Positions 9,724 to 33,480 of a stretch of 33,624 nucleotides of DNA are shown one piece after another (position 1 is the first letter of the stretch; each line of letters opens with the position of its first letter). Source of the DNA: Candidatus Nealsonbacteria bacterium CG11_big_fil_rev_8_21_14_0_20_37_68 (GTDB lineage Bacteria > Patescibacteriota > Minisyncoccia > Minisyncoccales > GCA-002782225); contig PCWJ01000024.1 in assembly GCA_002787295.1 (NCBI GenBank), forward strand, positions 29,931-63,554, given 5' to 3'. Both the position numbers and the translations under genes were made by a program. The notes under the pieces were generated by a model. It was not told the origin of the DNA. It searched no databases and was given only the letters and a program-made list of their open reading frames with translations.

Positions 9724-9777
9724 AACATTCTAACACTCCAACATTCTAACCCTCCAACATTCTAACCCTCGAACATG
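9724..9777 (+). repeat. 16-nt direct repeat x3.4 ending in the hit start codon
   Basis: AACATTCTAACACTCC / AACATTCTAACCCTCC / AACATTCTAACCCTCG / AACATG. GTTAGAATG at 9715-9723 is the inverted complement of the CATTCTAAC in the first unit. Confidence 0.9.
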
Positions 9778-10134
9778 CAAGATTGTCTTTTTTGTAAAAT
9801 TATTAATAAAGAGGTGCCGGTAGAAATTGTTTACGAAAACAATAAAGTTGTTGCTTTCAAAGATATTCATCCTAAGGCCCCCATTCATCTTTTAATTGTT
9901 CCCCAAAAACATATTCCTTCCGTTGATCATCTAGAAATCCAAGATAAAGAATTAATTGGAGAATTATTTTTAACTGCTCAAAAAATAGCCAGAGAACAAA
10001 GGATTGCTCAAACGGGTTATAAATTAGTGTTTAATGTCGGAAGAGGTGGGGGACAGGTAATAGATCACTTGCATCTACATTTATTGGGAGGATGGAAGAG
10101 TGAAAAAGAAAGGGATATTCCCGGAATGCCTTAA
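9775..10134 (+). CDS. HIT-family nucleotide hydrolase (HinT-like)
   Basis: 119 aa. N-terminal CLFCKI and the histidine triad HLHLHLLGG. Confidence 0.88.
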   Translation: MQDCLFCKIINKEVPVEIVYENNKVVAFKDIHPKAPIHLLIVPQKHIPSVDHLEIQDKELIGELFLTAQKIAREQRIAQTGYKLVFNVGRGGGQVIDHLHLHLLGGWKSEKERDIPGMP

Positions 10135-10157
10135 AATAATAATTAACATCCCATATC

Positions 10158-10350
10158 GGAGAGGGGTCGGGACGGGTCGCAAGAGTTCTCCGCGAAGCGG
10201 AAACTCCCGACCTAGAACCTTTCGGTTCTCCCGTGTAGGAAAACAGGGAGCGAAGCGACCGCCAGAAACCGAGGGTTTCTGGAGAGCGAGCCCGAACCGA
10301 GCACATAAGTTATGTGCTCGGGCCAGCCGAAGGCTGGGGAGGGCGAGCGA
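10158..10350. repeat. GC-rich mosaic of at least 6 hairpins (hit-rpsU spacer); candidate structured RNA or nested REP cluster
   Basis: Hairpins seen: GGTCGGGA..TCCCGACC (10165-10212), CCGC-gaa-GCGG, AGAACC-tttc-GGTTCT, CCAGAAACC-gag-GGTTTCTGG (10262-10282), GAGCACATA-agt-TATGTGCTC (10299-10319) and CCAGCC-gaa-GGCTGG (10323-10337). Confidence 0.8.
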
Positions 10351-10369
10351 TTAATTTAGCGTTACCACT

Positions 10370-10582
10370 ATGGCCATTGAAGTAAGAAAACAACTAAAAG
10401 AATCTTCTCAAGGTTTGATTCACCGCTTTTCACAAAGAGTTCAGCAAAGCGGAGTTTTGATTCGGGCCAGAGGAAATAGATTTAAAATCAAGCCAAAATC
10501 AAGACAAATGAAGAGGAAAGCTGCCTTAAGAAGAGAGAAATTAAGAAAGGAATACGAAAAACTTAAGAAACTTTCAAGATAG
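10370..10582 (+). CDS. rpsU: 30S ribosomal protein S21
   Basis: 70-aa very basic protein with an S21-like layout (..RFSQRVQQSGVL.., Arg/Lys-rich C-terminus). Confidence 0.75.
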   Translation: MAIEVRKQLKESSQGLIHRFSQRVQQSGVLIRARGNRFKIKPKSRQMKRKAALRREKLRKEYEKLKKLSR

Positions 10583-11841: not shown

Positions 11842-11925
11842 TAAGAACCTGCCTCGCTCCGCCAGTCGGCGGAGCTCGGCAGAACCTTGATTCGCTAAGG
11901 TATAGACATATAATCTTGAATTATG
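11842..11925 (+). repeat. Family A module, copy 1 (ybeY-ftsA spacer)
   Basis: TAAGAACCTGCCTCGCTC..GGCAGAACCTTGATTCGCTAAGGTATAGACATATAATCTTGAATTATG. Contains the hairpin CTGCC-TC-GCTCCGCC-agtc-GGCGGAGC-TC-GGCAG and a sigma70-like promoter. Confidence 0.85.
11887..11914 (+). promoter_or_regulatory. sigma70-like promoter of ftsA-ftsZ
   Basis: TTGATT, 16-nt spacer, TATAAT. The -10 ends 8 nt before the ATG and there is no SD. Confidence 0.6.
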
Positions 11926-14251: not shown

Positions 14252-14458
14252 TAAGAACCTGCCTCGCTCAGCTCCGGCAGAACTCCCGCACCAGAGCAAA
14301 GCCCAGCACTAGAGCAGAGCTCAGTGCTGGACAGTCCCGAAGTGAGCTTCGCTCTACTTCGGGGCACGGTGCGGGACTAATCCCGAACCGTGTCGCCGAA
14401 GGCGACTCTGGTTCGGGGCTTGATTCGCTAATGTATAAACATGTAATCTTGAATTAAG
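14252..14458 (+). repeat. Family A module, copy 2 (ftsZ-nrdD spacer), split by a nested insert
   Basis: Same 5' end (TAAGAACCTGCCTCGCTC..GGCAGAAC) and 3' end (CTTGATTCGCTAATGTATAAACATGTAATCTTGAATTAAG) as copy 1. About 135 nt of extra GC-rich hairpins lie between them. Confidence 0.85.
14284..14418 (+). repeat. Nested GC-rich hairpin cluster
   Basis: Outer stem TCCCGCACC/GGTGCGGGA (14284-14292 / 14369-14377) encloses hairpins CCAGCACT..AGTGCTGG and CCCGAAGT..ACTTCGGG. A third hairpin follows: CCCGAACC-GTGTCGCC-gaa-GGCGAC-tct-GGTTCGGG (14382-14417). Confidence 0.85.
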
Positions 14459-21560: not shown

Positions 21561-22901
21561 ATGGAAAAGATAAATTCAATCAATCAAAAAGCTTGGGTAG
21601 TGGCAGTAAGTATGGGTTATGGTCACCAAAGAACCGCTTATCCTCTAAAATATTTAGCCACCGGGCAGAAGATTATTAATGCTAATGATTATGAAGGAAT
21701 TCCCAAAAAAGATTGGCTTTTATGGGAAAGAATTCGCAAATTTTACGAATTTATTTCAAGATTTAAAAGGGTTTCGATAATTGGCCAAGCCTCTTTTTTT
21801 ATCTTCGATCAATTCCAAAAAATTCTTAGCTTTTATCCCAAAAGAGATTTATCTAAACCTAATTTTTCCTTAAAACAGATATTTTCTCTGATTAAGAAGG
21901 GCTGGGGCAAAGACCTGATTAAGAAATTAGAACAAAAGCCCCTGCCCTTTATTACTACTTTTTTTACGCCGGCCTTTATGGCTGAAGTTTTTAATTACCC
22001 TGGAGAAATTTTTTGCGTTGTTTGCGATGCAGACATCTCAAGAAGCTGGGTTTTCTTGGAGCCCCAAAAAAGCAAAATTAAATATTTTGCTCCAACATCC
22101 TGGGCAGCCCATCGGTTAAAGCTTTATGGGGTAAAAGAAGAAAATATTTTTTTAACTGGCTACCCTTTACCTCAAGAAAATCTTGGCCACCCACCCTACG
22201 GGCGGGTACCCGATTTAGAAATTTTAAAATCTGATTTAAGTTACCGGCTTTTAAATCTTGATCCAGATAAAATTTATTTTCGGCGATACAAAGTGTTAAT
22301 CGAAGAATATCTTGGAAGTTTGCCCAAAAACTCAAATCACCCTTTAACAATAATGTTTTCGGTTGGGGGAGCTGGGGTTCAGAAAGAAATTGGAATTCAG
22401 ATTGTAAAATCCTTAGCCAGAACCATTGGGGAAAGAAAAATCAAATTAATTTTGGTCGCCGGCACCAGAGAAAAAGTTAAAGAATATTTTCTAAAAAATA
22501 TAAAAAAACTGGGCCTTGAGGACACTTTAGGGAAAGGCGTTGAAATAATTTTTGCCCAAAAAATCGACGACTATTTTCAAAGATTCAATCAGGCCCTGAG
22601 AACAACCGATATTTTATGGACAAAACCAAGCGAACTTTCTTTTTATACTGCTTTAGGATTGCCAATTATTATTGCTCCTTCGATTGGCTCTCAGGAAGAT
22701 TTTAACCGAAGGTGGCTCTTACATCTGGGTTCGGGAATAGCTCAGGAGAATCCAAAATATGTTCATCAGTGGCTTTTTGATTTTTTAGAATCGGGTCGTT
22801 TTGCCGAGGCTGCTATGCAGGGATTTATTGAAGGAGAAAAACTGGGAACATTTAAGATCAAAAAAATAATTTTTAATAAAAATTCGGTTTCCCCCGTGTA
22901 G
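21561..22901 (+). CDS. GT-B glycosyltransferase, MGDG-synthase/UgtP-like
   Basis: 446 aa. N-terminal SMGYGHQRTAYPL resembles the xGxGHxxxAxAL motif of the MGDG_synth/GT28 family, and a C-terminal GT-B half is present. The last residues and the stop codon lie inside a GC-rich repeat. Confidence 0.6.
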   Translation: MEKINSINQKAWVVAVSMGYGHQRTAYPLKYLATGQKIINANDYEGIPKKDWLLWERIRKFYEFISRFKRVSIIGQASFFIFDQFQKILSFYPKRDLSKPNFSLKQIFSLIKKGWGKDLIKKLEQKPLPFITTFFTPAFMAEVFNYPGEIFCVVCDADISRSWVFLEPQKSKIKYFAPTSWAAHRLKLYGVKEENIFLTGYPLPQENLGHPPYGRVPDLEILKSDLSYRLLNLDPDKIYFRRYKVLIEEYLGSLPKNSNHPLTIMFSVGGAGVQKEIGIQIVKSLARTIGERKIKLILVAGTREKVKEYFLKNIKKLGLEDTLGKGVEIIFAQKIDDYFQRFNQALRTTDILWTKPSELSFYTALGLPIIIAPSIGSQEDFNRRWLLHLGSGIAQENPKYVHQWLFDFLESGRFAEAAMQGFIEGEKLGTFKIKKIIFNKNSVSPV

Positions 22902-22952
22902 GAAATTATTCAAAACCGAGGGTTGTGAAAAGAGGGGGGTCGGGGGAAACCG
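22885..22952. repeat. Family C element (GT - DMT spacer)
   Basis: 12-bp perfect stem CGGTTTCCCCCG/CGGGGGAAACCG encloses 44 nt. Shares TTCGGTTyCyCCCGTGTAGGAAA, AAACCGAGGGTT and GAGGGGTCGGG with 10161-10282. Confidence 0.8.
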
Positions 22953-22961
22953 TGTGATCGT

Positions 22962-23903
22962 ATGCTGTGGTTAATCGTTGCCATTTCGGCTTATTTAATT
23001 TTAGCCATTGTTCAGTTGGTTGATAAATATCTTTTGGCAGGTCCCATTCCCAGCCCAAAGGTTTATTCTTTTTATGTGGGAGCATTGGGGATTTTAATTT
23101 TAATCCTTGCTCCTTTTGTTAATTTTTATGTCCCGGAAATTAAGCAAATTATTTTAAGTTTAGTGGCAGGCGCCATTTTTATTTATGCCCTTTTTTGGTT
23201 TTATAAAGCTCTTCAAAAATATGAAGCATCTCGGGTAGTGTCGGCTGTCGGCGGAATTTTACCAATCTTTACTTTCGGATTAGTTTATGTCTTTTCTGGC
23301 GGGAAAGAAATCCTTAAACCTTGGGAATTTTTATCCCTTATTTTGCTAATTTTAGGAGGCGTTTTAATTACGTATGAAAAATCCAAAAAAATTTCTTTAA
23401 AAAGTTTCCAGATTTCTGCCATAGCCGCTTTTTTCTTAGCCCTATCATTTGTTCTTTCTAAATATGTTTATATGGTTTTACCCTTCTGGTCGGGCTACAT
23501 CTGGATAAAAATTGGTGGATTTTTAATGGCAATAGGTTTTCTTTTAACCCGGGAAGTAAGAAGTAAATTATTTAAGGTAAAAATAGCTAGGGTGGTGGGC
23601 GGGTGGCGTCCAAAAAAGACGGCCGGTATTTTTCTTTCAAATCAAGCTGCCGGAGCCGGAGCTAATATCCTGCAGAATTGGGCAATCGCCTTGGCTCCAT
23701 TAATTTGTGTACCCTTAATAAATGCTCTCCAGGGAGTTCAGTATGTTGCTTTATTAATTTTCGTCACCTTACTTTCTTTAACCCGGCCCTTTTGGGCAAA
23801 AAAGGTTGGGCTAAAAGAAGAGATTTCCAAAGAAGTAATTTTTCAGAAGCTTTTTGCCATTTTGCTTATCGGGACAGGGCTTGCTTTATTGGTTCTAAAG
23901 TGA
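22962..23903 (+). CDS. Polytopic membrane protein, DMT/EamA-like
   Basis: 313 aa with ~10 predicted TM helices in two halves. Family assignment is tentative. Confidence 0.5.
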   Translation: MLWLIVAISAYLILAIVQLVDKYLLAGPIPSPKVYSFYVGALGILILILAPFVNFYVPEIKQIILSLVAGAIFIYALFWFYKALQKYEASRVVSAVGGILPIFTFGLVYVFSGGKEILKPWEFLSLILLILGGVLITYEKSKKISLKSFQISAIAAFFLALSFVLSKYVYMVLPFWSGYIWIKIGGFLMAIGFLLTREVRSKLFKVKIARVVGGWRPKKTAGIFLSNQAAGAGANILQNWAIALAPLICVPLINALQGVQYVALLIFVTLLSLTRPFWAKKVGLKEEISKEVIFQKLFAILLIGTGLALLVLK

Positions 23904-26493: not shown

Positions 26494-26497
26494 CGCT

Positions 26498-26657
26498 CGG
26501 GCATCTTGCCTCAGGGAGCACGGCATCAGCCAAGTGGTAATAAAGATTTTATCTTCGGCTGTGCCTATTACTCGCCAGTCTTCAGTGACTTTTATTAAAA
26601 GTGCAATACTTTCTCTGGCGACTGGCTGCGTAATGCTCCCTTCGGCAAGAATGCCCT
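26498..26657. repeat. ~160-nt element closed by ~23-nt imperfect inverted termini (MITE-like or structured ncRNA)
   Basis: GGGCATCTTGCC-tca-GGGAGCA (26498-26520) pairs with TGCTCCC-ttc-GGCAAGAATGCCC (26634-26657). Internal hairpins are GGCATCAGCC..GGCTGTGCC, AAGAT-ttt-ATCTT and ACTTTTA-t-TAAAAGT. Confidence 0.7.
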
Positions 26658-26690
26658 CGCTTATCTATTCCTATATTCGTATTAATTCGT

Positions 26691-27467: not shown

Positions 27468-28955
27468 ATGTCAATATACGATTTGCCAAAATTTGACCCC
27501 GTTAGAAATTTTTTTAAAAAATTCAAAAAAGTAAAACTAACGGGAATTTCTAACGGGGTTGAATTACCCAAATTAAACCCTCCTAAGTTTTTTTTCAAAA
27601 AATTTGGGAGGGTAAAAGTCCCAAAACCCAGCACCAGAGCAGGGCTCGGTGCTGGACAGTCCCGAAGTGAGCTTAGCTCTAGTTCGGGGCTCGGTTCTGG
27701 ACCTTGGGGGAATAAAGCCGTTATTATTTTTTTGATAATTTTAATTTCTTTTATTTTTGGAGGCATAGGTGGAATCTTTACCGGCAGTTATTTTTATTCC
27801 CGGGTAGAAGATTACCTTAAAAAATTAAACATCCAGATTCCCCAGGTTGAAAAAGAAACAATAATCGAAAAAGAGTACGTTCCCGAGACCTCTCAAGAAG
27901 AAAAAACAATTAATGTGGTGAAAGAGGCATCCCCTTCGGTGGTAAGTATTATTATTACTAAAGACCTTCCAGTTGTTGAGCAATTCTACTATAACCCCCT
28001 TAAGGAATTTGAAGAATTTTTTGGGCCCCTTGGCCTTGAGTTTGAAGTTCCTCAGTATCAAGAAAAAGGAACCGAGAAAAAGGAAATTGGAGGAGGAACC
28101 GGTTTTATTATTTCTGAAGACGGAATGATTTTGACCAACCGCCATGTGGTCTTAGATAAAGAAGCAGATTACACTGTTTTAACCAACGAGGGTCAAAAAT
28201 ACCCGGCTAAAGTTTTAGCTCGAGACCCAATCAAAGATTTGGCTGTAATTAAGGTTGAAAGCGAAAAGAAATTTGAGCCCTTAAAATTGGGAGATTCCGA
28301 CAAACTTCAGCCGGGCCAGACCGTGATTGCGATTGGCAATGCTCTTGGAGAATTTCGAAATACGGTTTCTGCCGGCGTAGTTTCCGGGCTAAAGAGAACC
28401 GTTGCTGCTTCCGGCGGAGGCCAAACCGAAGTTTTAGAAAATGTAATTCAGACCGATGCCGCTATTAATCTAGGGAATTCCGGCGGTCCTTTGTTAAATT
28501 TACAAGGGGAGGTGATTGGAGTTAATGTAGCTGTGGCTCAGGTAGCGGAAAATATTGGTTTTGCTATTCCCATCAATGAAGCCAAAAAAGACATTGAGCA
28601 GGTTAAAACCTTGGGCAAAATTGTCTATCCCTTTTTGGGAATTTATTACATTGTGATTACCCCCGAACTTAAAGAAAAATTTAACTTGCCGGTTGATTAC
28701 GGAGCCTGGATTGGCAGAAATGAAAAAGGAGAATACACTGAAGAAGCAATTTTTTCCAATTCGGCCGCCGAGAAAATCGGTTTAAAAAGAGATGATATTA
28801 TTCTGGAGTTTGACGGCAAAAAAATTACTTCAGAAAATCCTTTAGCTAAAATTATTCTGGGATATAACCCGGGGGACAAAATTTCGTTAAAGGTTTTAAG
28901 AGACAACAAAGAGGAAATTTTTCCGGTTATTCTTGGCGAGAGAAGCGAAGATTAA
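27468..28955 (+). CDS. htrA: HtrA/DegP-type serine protease with PDZ domain
   Basis: 495 aa. Intact triad contexts (LTNRHVV, KDLAVIKV, GNSGGPL), a C-terminal PDZ domain and one TM helix. The N-terminal ~80 aa are encoded by repeats and palindromes. Confidence 0.88.
   Translation: MSIYDLPKFDPVRNFFKKFKKVKLTGISNGVELPKLNPPKFFFKKFGRVKVPKPSTRAGLGAGQSRSELSSSSGLGSGPWGNKAVIIFLIILISFIFGGIGGIFTGSYFYSRVEDYLKKLNIQIPQVEKETIIEKEYVPETSQEEKTINVVKEASPSVVSIIITKDLPVVEQFYYNPLKEFEEFFGPLGLEFEVPQYQEKGTEKKEIGGGTGFIISEDGMILTNRHVVLDKEADYTVLTNEGQKYPAKVLARDPIKDLAVIKVESEKKFEPLKLGDSDKLQPGQTVIAIGNALGEFRNTVSAGVVSGLKRTVAASGGGQTEVLENVIQTDAAINLGNSGGPLLNLQGEVIGVNVAVAQVAENIGFAIPINEAKKDIEQVKTLGKIVYPFLGIYYIVITPELKEKFNLPVDYGAWIGRNEKGEYTEEAIFSNSAAEKIGLKRDDIILEFDGKKITSENPLAKIILGYNPGDKISLKVLRDNKEEIFPVILGERSED
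27497..27558. repeat. 14-bp perfect inverted repeat in the htrA 5' coding region
   Basis: CCCCGTTAGAAATT (27497-27510) and AATTTCTAACGGGG (27545-27558), plus an extra CTAACGGG at 27537-27544. Confidence 0.85.
27625..27703 (+). repeat. Family A two-hairpin core, in-frame in htrA
   Basis: By hand alignment, 27627-27690 differs from 14302-14365 at about 5 of 64 positions. Confidence 0.85.
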
Positions 28956-32487: not shown

Positions 32488-32504
32488 CCGGGAAGTCTTC
32501 CCGG
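32488..32504. repeat. REP-like palindrome, left of the RAYT gene
   Basis: 8-bp arms CCGGGAAG/CTTCCCGG around one central t. Lies 8 nt after the stop of the upstream gene. Confidence 0.85.
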
Positions 32505-32646
32505 TAGCAGTAGGCAGCATATATCTAAATCTAATATAGAAAATAATTTTTTACTTTTGGGCTTGACAGCTCTTTTTAATTCCCCAAGATAACAACTGTT
32601 GATTATTTTTTAGAAGTTAGCTAAATTGCTAATTGAGATAGTTTCC

Positions 32647-32714: not shown

Positions 32715-33452
32715 ATGCCAATAAAACATCCACAATTTGTTAATGGAGAAATCTATCACATTATAGTTAGGGGAATTGCCGGTCAAAAAACTTTTTTAGA
32801 CGATAAAGATCGTCTGAGATATCTTTTTAATTTGTATAAATTTAATAATAAAAATATAGTTATTCGTAATCCCTCTTACCGGGAAGCCATCCCGGTAGTC
32901 TACCGGGATGGCTTCCCGGTGCTGTTGGAGACAGAAAGGGAAAAGCCAAGAGATTTATTAATTGAACTTTTAGCCGTTTGTTTAGTGCCCAATCATATTC
33001 ATTTATTAGTTCGTCAGGCTGACGACGGCGGTGTTTCTTTATTTTTCCAAAAAATGGGCGGTTATGCCAGTTATTTTAATAAAAAATACCAAAGATTTGG
33101 TTCTTTATTTCAGCGACCATTTAAAGCTATTCATATCAAAACTAATGACCAATTATTAATTGTCACTACCTATATTCATTTAAATTTAATTGATTTAATT
33201 GAGCCAAACTGGAAAATTAAGGGTATTTCCGATCCTCAAAAGATTATGGATTTTTTAGAAACTTATCCTTGGTCAAGCTATCCTTATTATTTGGGAAAAT
33301 CAAATCTTTCTTGGCTAATTAATTCTGATTTTCTAAATAAAATTTTAAAAAGGCCCGAGGATTTTCGGAATTTTGTTAAGGCTCGGATTTTTCAGAAAAC
33401 TGAACTAAAAAATTTTTTAAAGAAGACCAAAGAAATTGAGAAGTTTTTCTGA
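32715..33452 (+). CDS. REP-associated tyrosine transposase-like protein (HUH / Y1, IS200-like fold)
   Basis: 245 aa. N-terminal YHIIVRG, HUH motif in PNHIHLLV, and a Tyr ~57 aa downstream in TTYIHLN. No TnpB partner. Flanked and interrupted by related palindromes. Confidence 0.8.
   Translation: MPIKHPQFVNGEIYHIIVRGIAGQKTFLDDKDRLRYLFNLYKFNNKNIVIRNPSYREAIPVVYRDGFPVLLETEREKPRDLLIELLAVCLVPNHIHLLVRQADDGGVSLFFQKMGGYASYFNKKYQRFGSLFQRPFKAIHIKTNDQLLIVTTYIHLNLIDLIEPNWKIKGISDPQKIMDFLETYPWSSYPYYLGKSNLSWLINSDFLNKILKRPEDFRNFVKARIFQKTELKNFLKKTKEIEKFF
32878..32920. repeat. 43-nt palindrome inside the RAYT CDS
   Basis: ACCGGGAAGCCATCCCGGTA-gtc-TACCGGGATGGCTTCCCGGT, with 20-bp perfect arms. Each arm is itself a small hairpin. 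Confidence 0.9.
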
Positions 33453-33455
33453 TAG

Positions 33456-33480
33456 TCTACCGGGAAGACTTCCCGGTAGA
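33456..33480. repeat. REP-like palindrome, right of the RAYT gene
   Basis: 12-bp perfect arms TCTACCGGGAAG/CTTCCCGGTAGA around a central a. Starts 4 nt after the RAYT stop. Confidence 0.88.

Follow-up and report, generated by a model that had tools for sequence, protein, structure and literature searches.

A GC-rich interspersed repeat with signs of a single-stranded DNA fold, inserted between hit and an S21-like gene in a Nealsonbacteria genome

The BoxC/PIT/TMECO repeats of E. coli and other bacteria (Hoyne et al. 2000; Holder et al. 2015, PMC4666352) are G/C-rich interspersed intergenic repeats, present in multiple copies and variable between close relatives, in which a C-rich strand, a G-rich strand and a second, mirrored G-rich strand fit a purine-motif triplex. 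All of these traits are shared by the repeat family described here, one copy of which lies at positions 10147-10369 of a 33,624-nt stretch of the genome of Candidatus Nealsonbacteria bacterium CG11_big_fil_rev_8_21_14_0_20_37_68 (GCA_002787295.1, contig PCWJ01000024.1, positions 29,931 to 63,554 of the forward strand; this whole stretch is called the window below), between hit and a gene for an S21-like protein. With the REP/BIME repeats and their REP-associated tyrosine transposases (RAYTs), the family has in common short GC-rich intergenic palindromes arranged in mosaics and, probably, action as single-stranded DNA hairpins, and the window contains a RAYT-like gene. Miniature inverted-repeat transposable elements (MITEs) and other small repeats, such as Correia, ERIC, RUP and the Rickettsia palindromic elements, resemble it in being 100-250 nt long, non-coding, structured, situated at gene boundaries, co-transcribed and different between relatives. 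Integron attC sites, the CTX phage attP site and integrative elements that target the 3' ends of tRNAs or genes share with it the precedence of structure over sequence and an insert that is flanked by directly repeated 3' ends of tRNAs or genes and whose inserted side restores the gene end. Finally, the GC clusters of yeast mitochondrial DNA, unrelated in sequence and host, are likewise GC-rich, palindromic, mobile-looking modules, often nested, in a very AT-rich genome; we know of no conserved junction or triplex core in them.

The element at 10147-10369 is a lineage-specific insertion and one copy of an interspersed repeat family. Its surroundings are AT-rich (37.0% GC for the whole window), and the 235-nt spacer that divides the HIT-family gene (9775-10134) from the 70-aa gene (10370-10582) coincides with a GC-rich island (10139-10383) reaching 67% GC in 60-nt windows. 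The element carries at least seven hairpins in series. The RNA fold of 10135-10369 reaches -96.3 kcal/mol on the + strand (z = -4.7) and z = -5.5 on the - strand, and the DNA fold of 10147-10369 has z = -5.4; in each case, none of 200 shuffles was as stable. An earlier interpretation made from the letters alone (the sequence-only reading) had described a GC-rich mosaic of hairpins here, with GAA, GAG and AGT triloops and two exact occurrences of GCGAAGC. The mosaic is real, all three triloops appear in the fold and GCGAAGC is found at 10192-10198 and 10250-10256, whereas the proposed length of about 190 nt becomes 223 nt when the family boundaries are applied. Of the two gene names given, hit is supported by a Pfam HIT match, and rpsU is weakly supported: the 70-aa protein is weakly bS21-like (17 of 17 weak PDB matches are bS21, the best with E = 0.006) and Pfam and NCBIfam scans of it returned no match. 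Two open reading frames (ORFs) that cross the spacer, 10100-10354 (+) and 10031-10306 (-), were rightly called spurious, since they span a region in which family members differ by hairpin-sized insertions; neither has a Pfam match. No tRNA or transfer-messenger RNA was found in a scan of the window.

The insertion is evident from the relatives. Where the HIT protein is 78-81% identical, the gene order hisS-hit-S21-like-yqeY is kept and the hit stop codon lies 5 nt (loci L019 and L020) or 4 nt (L021 and L022) from the next ATG. A second copy in the window is likewise missing at its syntenic loci L141 and L142, where the flanking genes overlap. Within the population the spacer is identical in 17 of 17 contigs, one single-nucleotide polymorphism aside (the window sequence also occurs as contig PFRI01000017.1 of GCA_002788455.1 and in many JGI and ENA metagenome contigs), and no empty allele with the window's exact flanks was found in the JGI metagenomes, so that the insertion appears fixed in this population. 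The same type of element abuts the start codons of unrelated genes, namely those for NusG, L10, S18, NusA, ClpB, Hsp20, RpiB and HolA. An rpsU leader, one of the options of the sequence-only reading, is therefore not supported, given the 4-5 nt junction in L019-L022 and the unrelated genes that other copies precede; the comparison of this spacer across relatives, which that reading had proposed, showed the element to be lacking at the junction in close relatives, yet present elsewhere in other genomic copies. In L018, whose HIT protein is 92% identical, a different repeat (CGAATTACGAATCA twice) follows the hit stop codon at 2640-2699, after which the contig ends. Because L018 carries a different repeat at this place, the hit/S21 junction seems to be an insertion hot spot.

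The family was collected by searching one genome per species with the pattern CCGTGTAGGAAA-N(4-34)-AACCGAGGGTT, comprising 23 exact bases. At least 118 genome stretches match it, with several copies per genome, while about 0.5 chance matches are expected by our own estimate. Among the matches listed, every named host belongs to the Patescibacteria (Staskawicz-, Nealson-, Lipton-, Colwell-, Wolfe-, Jorgensen-, Niyogi- and Harrisonbacteria, Paceibacterota, Minisyncoccia and bins labelled Saccharibacteria). Copy-level counts below refer to 122 family copies, and alignment statistics to 102 distinct copies, among these matches. A covariance model (R1) built from the 102 distinct copies, with the window copy left out, matches the window at 10159-10290 (58.2 bits, E = 3e-14, model positions 1-73) and at 22876-22937 (43.6 bits, E = 4e-10); it gave no significant match in the remaining window or in L018-L022. 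The family is thus a small (about 100-230 nt), GC-rich, modular interspersed element, multi-copy in many Patescibacteria. Its pattern had no match in the viral collection, which leaves a phage vector without evidence. Rfam 15 returned no match in the whole window at gathering thresholds, noise only for 10050-10450 at E up to 10, and tRNAs only at eight canonical family loci; the confident Rfam match that the sequence-only reading had named as its possible refutation thus did not materialize. As literature searches found no description of it either, the repeat family is apparently undescribed to date.

In the consensus, a purine tract is followed by GGGG-TC-GGG, helix P2, GTGTAGGAAA, an optional hairpin P3, P4 (with a C-GAG-G loop), GGAGCGA, variable hairpins and GCGAC, and a closing stem of locus-specific sequence encloses the whole. 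Judged from the alignment, the core is a multi-helix junction made of P2, P4, the fixed joining strands GTGTAGGAAA and GGAGCGA...GCGAC, and the closing stem. P2 and P4 together have 97.3% of their helix cells paired, with compensatory changes in 11 pairs; none of 500 shuffles attained the observed pairing or covariation score. Covariation across genomic copies, which the sequence-only reading had suggested testing, is thus present. Taken separately, P2 has compensatory changes in six of its nine pairs, with 96.6% of cells paired, and P4 is paired in 98% of cells, its outer pairs covarying (UA/CG, AU/CG, AU/GC). GGGTCGG is 98-100% conserved in the 102 distinct copies, and GGAGCGA is conserved too, though both lie outside the search pattern. 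A minority of copies (window positions 22885-22952, L064, L089, L110 and L113) are circularly permuted, with the P2 loop opened and the 3' end of P4 joined directly to the purine tract. This accounts for the blocks that the sequence-only reading had seen in another order at 22885-22952: the order differs by circular permutation of the same core, and the exact shared blocks are CCCGTGTAGGAAA (10230 and 22893), AAACCGAGGGTT (10266 and 22913) and GGGGTCGGG (10163 and 22936), the longer strings that it quoted having 1-2 nt mismatches. The window copy itself consists of a complete core plus four extras (a 42-nt module in P2, the P3 hairpin and two further hairpins, A and B), three of which recur in other species. 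Of the pile-up of nested palindromic elements that had been envisaged, the nesting of hairpin modules remains, and the lack of order does not, as this is an ordered composite element with a conserved core.

The conserved core looks built for single-stranded DNA folding, triple helix included. The 5' purine tract is the mirror image of the P2 purine strand and covaries with each P2 pair as G.G-C, A.A-T and T.A-T over six to seven positions, in at least 12 distinct haplotypes (for example AGGAGGGG / CGGGAGGA / TCCTCCCG and AGGGTGGG / CGGAGGGA / TCCCTCCG). The antiparallel purine-motif triplex has this code. It describes 86.1% of cells; column shuffling lowers the fit to 63.6 +/- 1.3% (maximum 68.3% in 1000 shuffles), and slid registers give 36-65%. 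If the 5' purine tract is instead paired with the P2 pyrimidine strand in antiparallel Watson-Crick fashion, no register accounts for more than 72% of cells, and such pairing was hence rejected as the cause of the mirror covariation. In the window copy the tract is present as GAGAGGGG-TC-GGGA, P2 being interrupted by the 42-nt module. Purine-motif triplexes are stated not to form in RNA in a study of bacterial intrastrand triplex repeats (PMC4666352). The loops point the same way: C(GNA)G triloops, which cap the variable hairpins, were observed 60 times (10.1 +/- 3.3 expected), whereas GNRA tetraloops, with 24 observed and 21.5 expected, are unenriched. The remark of the sequence-only reading that GCGAAGC forms an unusually stable DNA mini-hairpin was apt, its melting temperature being 76.5 C as DNA and 39 C as the RNA version, r(GCGAAAGC) (PMC13037366). 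G.U accounts for about 0.7% of helix cells, and an RNA wobble signature was looked for and rejected, as G.T is not in excess over A.C. Indirectly, the triplex code, the C(GNA)G loops and the scarcity of G.U fit DNA better than RNA.

On balance, the element is probably a mobile DNA element akin to REP/BIME and BoxC that folds as single-stranded DNA. It would work and spread in this folded form, as do the REP/BIME and BoxC/PIT triplex repeats, with host single-strand DNA or recombination machinery processing it in trans. Nested GNA-capped mini-hairpins occupy permissive positions of the core. Within the hit-S21 operon the element would be passively transcribed, and its hairpins may then punctuate the mRNA as a stabiliser, an attenuator or a mask of the start codon.

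The placement of copies speaks of mobility. Most are intergenic (115 of 122); within one genome, cores are near-identical while flanks differ (L070, L055); in a Leu-Val-Phe-Gly tRNA cluster the element follows different tRNAs in four species; and 12 copies lie antisense to both of their neighbouring genes. Behind the core, 60 of the 122 copies carry a direct repeat (18 to more than 100 nt) of the sequence that precedes it. This repeat corresponds to the 3' portion of a tRNA (T arm to end) or to the C-terminal coding end of a protein gene, and its beginning is reverse-complementary to the arm that immediately precedes the core. The downstream duplicate keeps the reading frame and usually the stop codon. 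Duplicated gene ends at 15 loci show 40 synonymous against 25 nonsynonymous codon differences, one of them (L087) having seven synonymous and no nonsynonymous differences. In two copies, L029 and L116, the repeat corresponds instead to the 5' coding end of translational GTPase genes (EF-G; TypA/BipA-like), to which the element is antisense; the junction is situated within the IAH(I/V)D codons, whose antisense, ATGAGCGAT, resembles the GAGCGA end of the element itself. For the window copy no flanking direct repeats were found (best score 9), and its subfamily is without them, its flanks CATCCCATATCGG (5') and ..TACCACTATG (3') being conserved between species.

The gene-end repeats may mean that the element imports a replacement gene end from another lineage, in the manner of integrative elements; alternatively, both ends may be used. 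More tentatively still, the family could be a novel class of self-folding nucleic-acid element with a triplex-clamped multi-helix junction and a guide-like arm (S') complementary to its target, which integrates beside the target and duplicates and functionally replaces the gene or tRNA end. This is a possibility that we rate well below even, and it would imply either guide-directed integration of single-stranded DNA without an element-encoded enzyme or a minimal intron-like RNA that aligns both junctions through S'.

None of the kinds of element compared here (BoxC/PIT/TMECO, REP/BIME, MITEs, folded recombination sites) is fully matched, and the family is best described as an interspersed, structure-forming, non-coding repeat. 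It resembles BoxC/PIT/TMECO in that it has the sequence features of a purine-motif triplex, namely a mirrored purine tract beside a purine/pyrimidine hairpin, with triples that fit in the proportion of cells given above. TMECO, however, is a bare unit of 34-36 nt with the strand order Y-R-R, whereas the order here is third strand, turn, R, loop, Y (or permuted), and the TMECO consensus CCCTCNCCC-N3-6-GGGNGAGGG-N3-GGGNGAGGG is not found, strand order and sequence both being different. In contrast to TMECO, the putative triplex belongs here to a larger conserved junction, of which it is a single arm beside P4, the fixed joining strands and the closing stem; the hosts are of another phylum, sequence similarity is lacking, and triplex covariation extends across many haplotypes. 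Unlike MITEs, the family lacks both fixed-sequence terminal inverted repeats and a short, fixed target duplication, and it has no known parent insertion sequence: its flanking stem is made of target sequence and locus-specific, half of the copies duplicate 18 to more than 100 nt of a gene end, duplications being absent otherwise, and no transposase recurs nearby. Target 3'-end direct repeats, the mark of integrative elements, accompany 60 of the 122 copies; in contrast to attC, attP and integrative elements, no integrase or Xer site was identified (758 neighbouring ORFs included no recombinase cluster), the insert is only about 150-250 nt, targets are many and the window copy lacks the repeats.

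As for REP/BIME, the family core is a multi-helix junction and not a single palindrome. In REP elements, GTAG stands beside the foot of the hairpin. In the present family TGTAG comes after P2; the search pattern itself imposed the GTAG, and in L125 a diverged copy has ATAG instead. The RAYT-like gene of the window (32715-33452) encodes a 245-aa protein resembling Y1 HUH transposases (Pfam Y1_Tnp, 29.9 bits, cutoff 23), the best NCBIfam match of which, below cutoff, is REP-associated tyrosine transposase. It is single-copy and syntenic in relatives, and in each genome a genome-specific perfect palindrome occurs before, inside (in frame, at about +175 nt) and after it. These palindromes resemble P2 plus GTAG only loosely; their sequence (CTACCGGGAAG-n-CTTCCCGGTAG) is another one and local to the gene, the flanking hairpins CCGGGAAG..CTTCCCGGTAG being confined within the window to its vicinity. 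A RAYT gene flanked by the same dispersed REP as the family was thus found neither in the window nor in syntenic relatives. As the gene has hairpins of its own and relatives carry it without family copies nearby, it is a candidate enzyme and a lead for this family, not evidence.

Several observations weigh against a mobile DNA element that folds as a single strand. The RAYT-like gene has its own cognate hairpins, and syntenic relatives that possess it have no family copy within 62 kb. Clustering of the 758 ORFs that lie within 3 kb of the copies revealed housekeeping genes only, with no recurrent transposase, integrase/recombinase or reverse transcriptase, and no transposition event was observed. 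The family set was selected by two search blocks, so that their conservation cannot be judged from it. An extra module interrupts P2 in the window copy, which may therefore not adopt the canonical fold. Orientation is biased to the sense strand (79 against 25 for the upstream gene, 69 against 33 for the downstream gene), and in the start-codon-linked subfamily the flanks are conserved and stop precisely at the ATG. Circular permutation and a variable closing stem are, moreover, typical of functional RNAs, and purine.purine-pyrimidine triples are known in tRNA cores. The conserved flanks ending at start codons are the best argument for a role in expression, and for this reason two expression-based alternatives are kept.

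The stronger of the two, which we nonetheless consider rather unlikely, is a cis-acting structured RNA, riboswitch-like or self-cleaving/processing, in which the junction core would be the sensor or catalyst and the closing stem, which includes ACCACUAUG in this subfamily, would control downstream translation or processing. Invariant junction nucleotides alongside covarying helices, a locus-specific closing stem, circular permutation, the overall sense-strand bias and a sense-oriented subfamily that ends exactly at start codons are all what such an RNA would lead one to expect. It fits poorly, however, with relatives that have the same junction and no element, with downstream genes that are unrelated, with the many copies that follow tRNAs or terminators and with the 12 copies that are antisense to both neighbouring genes; the triplex code is that of a DNA-only purine motif, C(GNA)G triloops are enriched and GNRA/UNCG caps are not, G.U pairs are nearly missing and no Rfam family matches.

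The second, a mobile expression cassette, appears improbable. Its 3' box (..TAGTATTACCACTATG) would be a promoter or leaderless-start context, now driving the S21-like gene in place of the lost translational coupling to hit. That gene does indeed lack a Shine-Dalgarno sequence and now stands 235 nt from hit, and the conserved 3' box ends at the ATG of highly expressed genes and also at one tRNA; in this genome, a promoter-like box that abuts the ftsA ATG at 11923 suggests, from its position, leaderless mRNAs. On the other hand, a consensus scan of the + strand of the spacer (10135-10370) found neither a promoter nor an intrinsic terminator, the -10-like hexamer of the window copy is poor (TAGCGT) and the distance from the TA-rich box to ATG varies within the subfamily; a cassette would also leave unexplained the half of the family that is linked to gene 3' ends, and it sits ill with the absence of the element in relatives and the copies antisense to both neighbours. 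The idea that GC-rich hairpins without relation to one another have accumulated locally, or that this is a separate small-RNA gene (for example, for a divergent 6S or signal recognition particle RNA), is hardly credible and already close to refuted by the multi-copy pattern matches and the full-length model match (with absence from close relatives and from Rfam even at E = 10 adding to this), even if GC-rich islands in AT-rich genomes often signal RNA genes and the window has several further GC-rich hairpin islands. Other known systems were considered and rejected: template/variable repeats of diversity-generating retroelements, as the differences are not specific to adenines and a reverse transcriptase is missing; group I/II introns, for which the core is too small; TIGR arrays, since the element lacks a tandem arrangement; and DNA uptake sequences, for which the copies are too sparse.

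If the DNA element reading is right, this would be, as far as we have found, the first natural intrastrand triplex backed by covariation, and would provide a handle on the use and propagation of such structures in vivo. The genomes of Patescibacteria are tiny and streamlined, yet they tolerate a non-coding family of 100-230 nt beside tRNAs and core expression genes. Gene and tRNA ends are duplicated in a way that preserves coding, which suggests a mode of integration or exchange that known transposases do not explain, and that would be relevant to gene flow in a phylum thought to rely on DNA uptake. On a practical level, such repeats break metagenome assemblies and yield spurious ORF calls, and a model of the family would improve annotation.

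Table 1. Parts of the two family copies and hairpins of the RAYT-like gene in the window
Feature	Position	Strand	Remark
5' flank box CATCCCATATCGG	10147..10159	+	start-codon-linked subfamily; candidate 5' strand of the closing stem
Purine "third strand" GAGAGGGG, turn TC, then GGG = start of P2 purine strand	10159..10171	+	mirror covariation with the P2 purine strand
Extra module ACGGGTCGCAAGAGTTCTCCGCGAAGCGGAAACTCCCGACCT nested in P2	10172..10213	+	holds the first GCGAAGC
P2 hairpin AGAACC-TTTC-GGTTCT	10214..10229	+	P2 covariation across the family
Joining strand CCCGTGTAGGAAA	10230..10242	+	exact at 22893-22905; half of the search pattern
Optional P3 module ACAGGGAGCGAAGCGACCG	10243..10261	+	holds the second GCGAAGC
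P4 hairpin CCAGAAACC-GAG-GGTTTCTGG	10262..10282	+	inner AACCGAGGGTT = other half of the search pattern
3' domain: AGAGCGAGCCC, hairpin A (10297-10321), hairpin B (10323-10337), GGAGGGCGAGCGAT	10283..10351	+	family frame GGAGCGA[variable hairpins]GCGAC
3' flank box TAATTTAGCGTTACCACT + ATG of the S21-like gene	10352..10372	+	(T/G)TACCACTATG element end
Second, circularly permuted copy	22876..22964	+	P2 3' strand, CCCGTGTAGGAAA, P4, AAGAGGGGGG-TC-GGGGGAAACCG, GTGTGATCGT-ATG
RAYT-gene hairpins	32488-32507, 32878-32920, 33457-33478		before, inside and after the gene

Several parts of the window copy (Table 1) have counterparts elsewhere. The 5' box is kept upstream of the core in L024, L051, L068, L084, L118 and others, whichever genes adjoin, and, as read from the sequence, is imperfectly complementary to CCACTATGG at 10362-10372. 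At the other end, in at least 15 species, (T/G)TACCACTATG closes the element right at a start codon, the genes concerned being unrelated. The module nested in P2, whose CCCGACC is predicted to be able to pair with the conserved GGTCGGG, does not occur in canonical copies and is handled by the covariance model as a 56-nt insertion; its 3' part recurs in L055, L100 and the second copy of L125 (4621-4716, - strand). The P3 module is found at the same position in about one third of family copies, as ACAG-hairpin-CGYYAG, and is identical in L139 (21 of 21 nt). Hairpin A recurs in L103, and hairpin B with the closing GGGCGAGCGA in L133, L100 and L139. The second copy lies between a DUF6938 gene and an EamA-like gene, abutting the ATG at 22962, and has a near-identical counterpart in another species (L089), before a different gene.

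The window contains other repeats and boxes. Another GC-rich hairpin repeat is present at 14297-14377 and 27622-27702, the two copies being 89% identical; immediately behind the first of them, metagenome contigs stop or diverge (breakpoints 14397-14433) into three different downstream contexts, which indicates that this repeat is multi-copy in the genome. The sequence-only reading had likened a hairpin of the element, CCAGCCGAAGGCTGG (10323-10337), to 14392-14406: GTCGCCGAAGGCGAC is indeed present there, and the two have in common only the style of a C(GAA)G-capped hairpin. The promoter-like box mentioned above, CTTGATTCGC..TATAATCTTGAATTA, is conserved at 11886-11923 and 14419-14456 and also in L002 and L003. 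After ybeY and ftsZ (11843-11886 and 14254-14284) the same hairpin, AGAACCTGCCTCGCTC..GGCAGAAC, is found, one copy having a further hairpin, CCGCCAGTCGGCGG, nested in its loop. Between two glycosyltransferase genes, there is a 165-nt imperfect hairpin (26496-26660; RNA fold z = -7.9), for which Rfam gave nothing above noise; it may represent a divergent small RNA, for instance a 6S-like one. Lastly, about 3.6 tandem copies of a 16-nt unit, AACATTCTAACCCTCC, occupy 9724-9780, directly upstream of the hit start codon and overlapping it.

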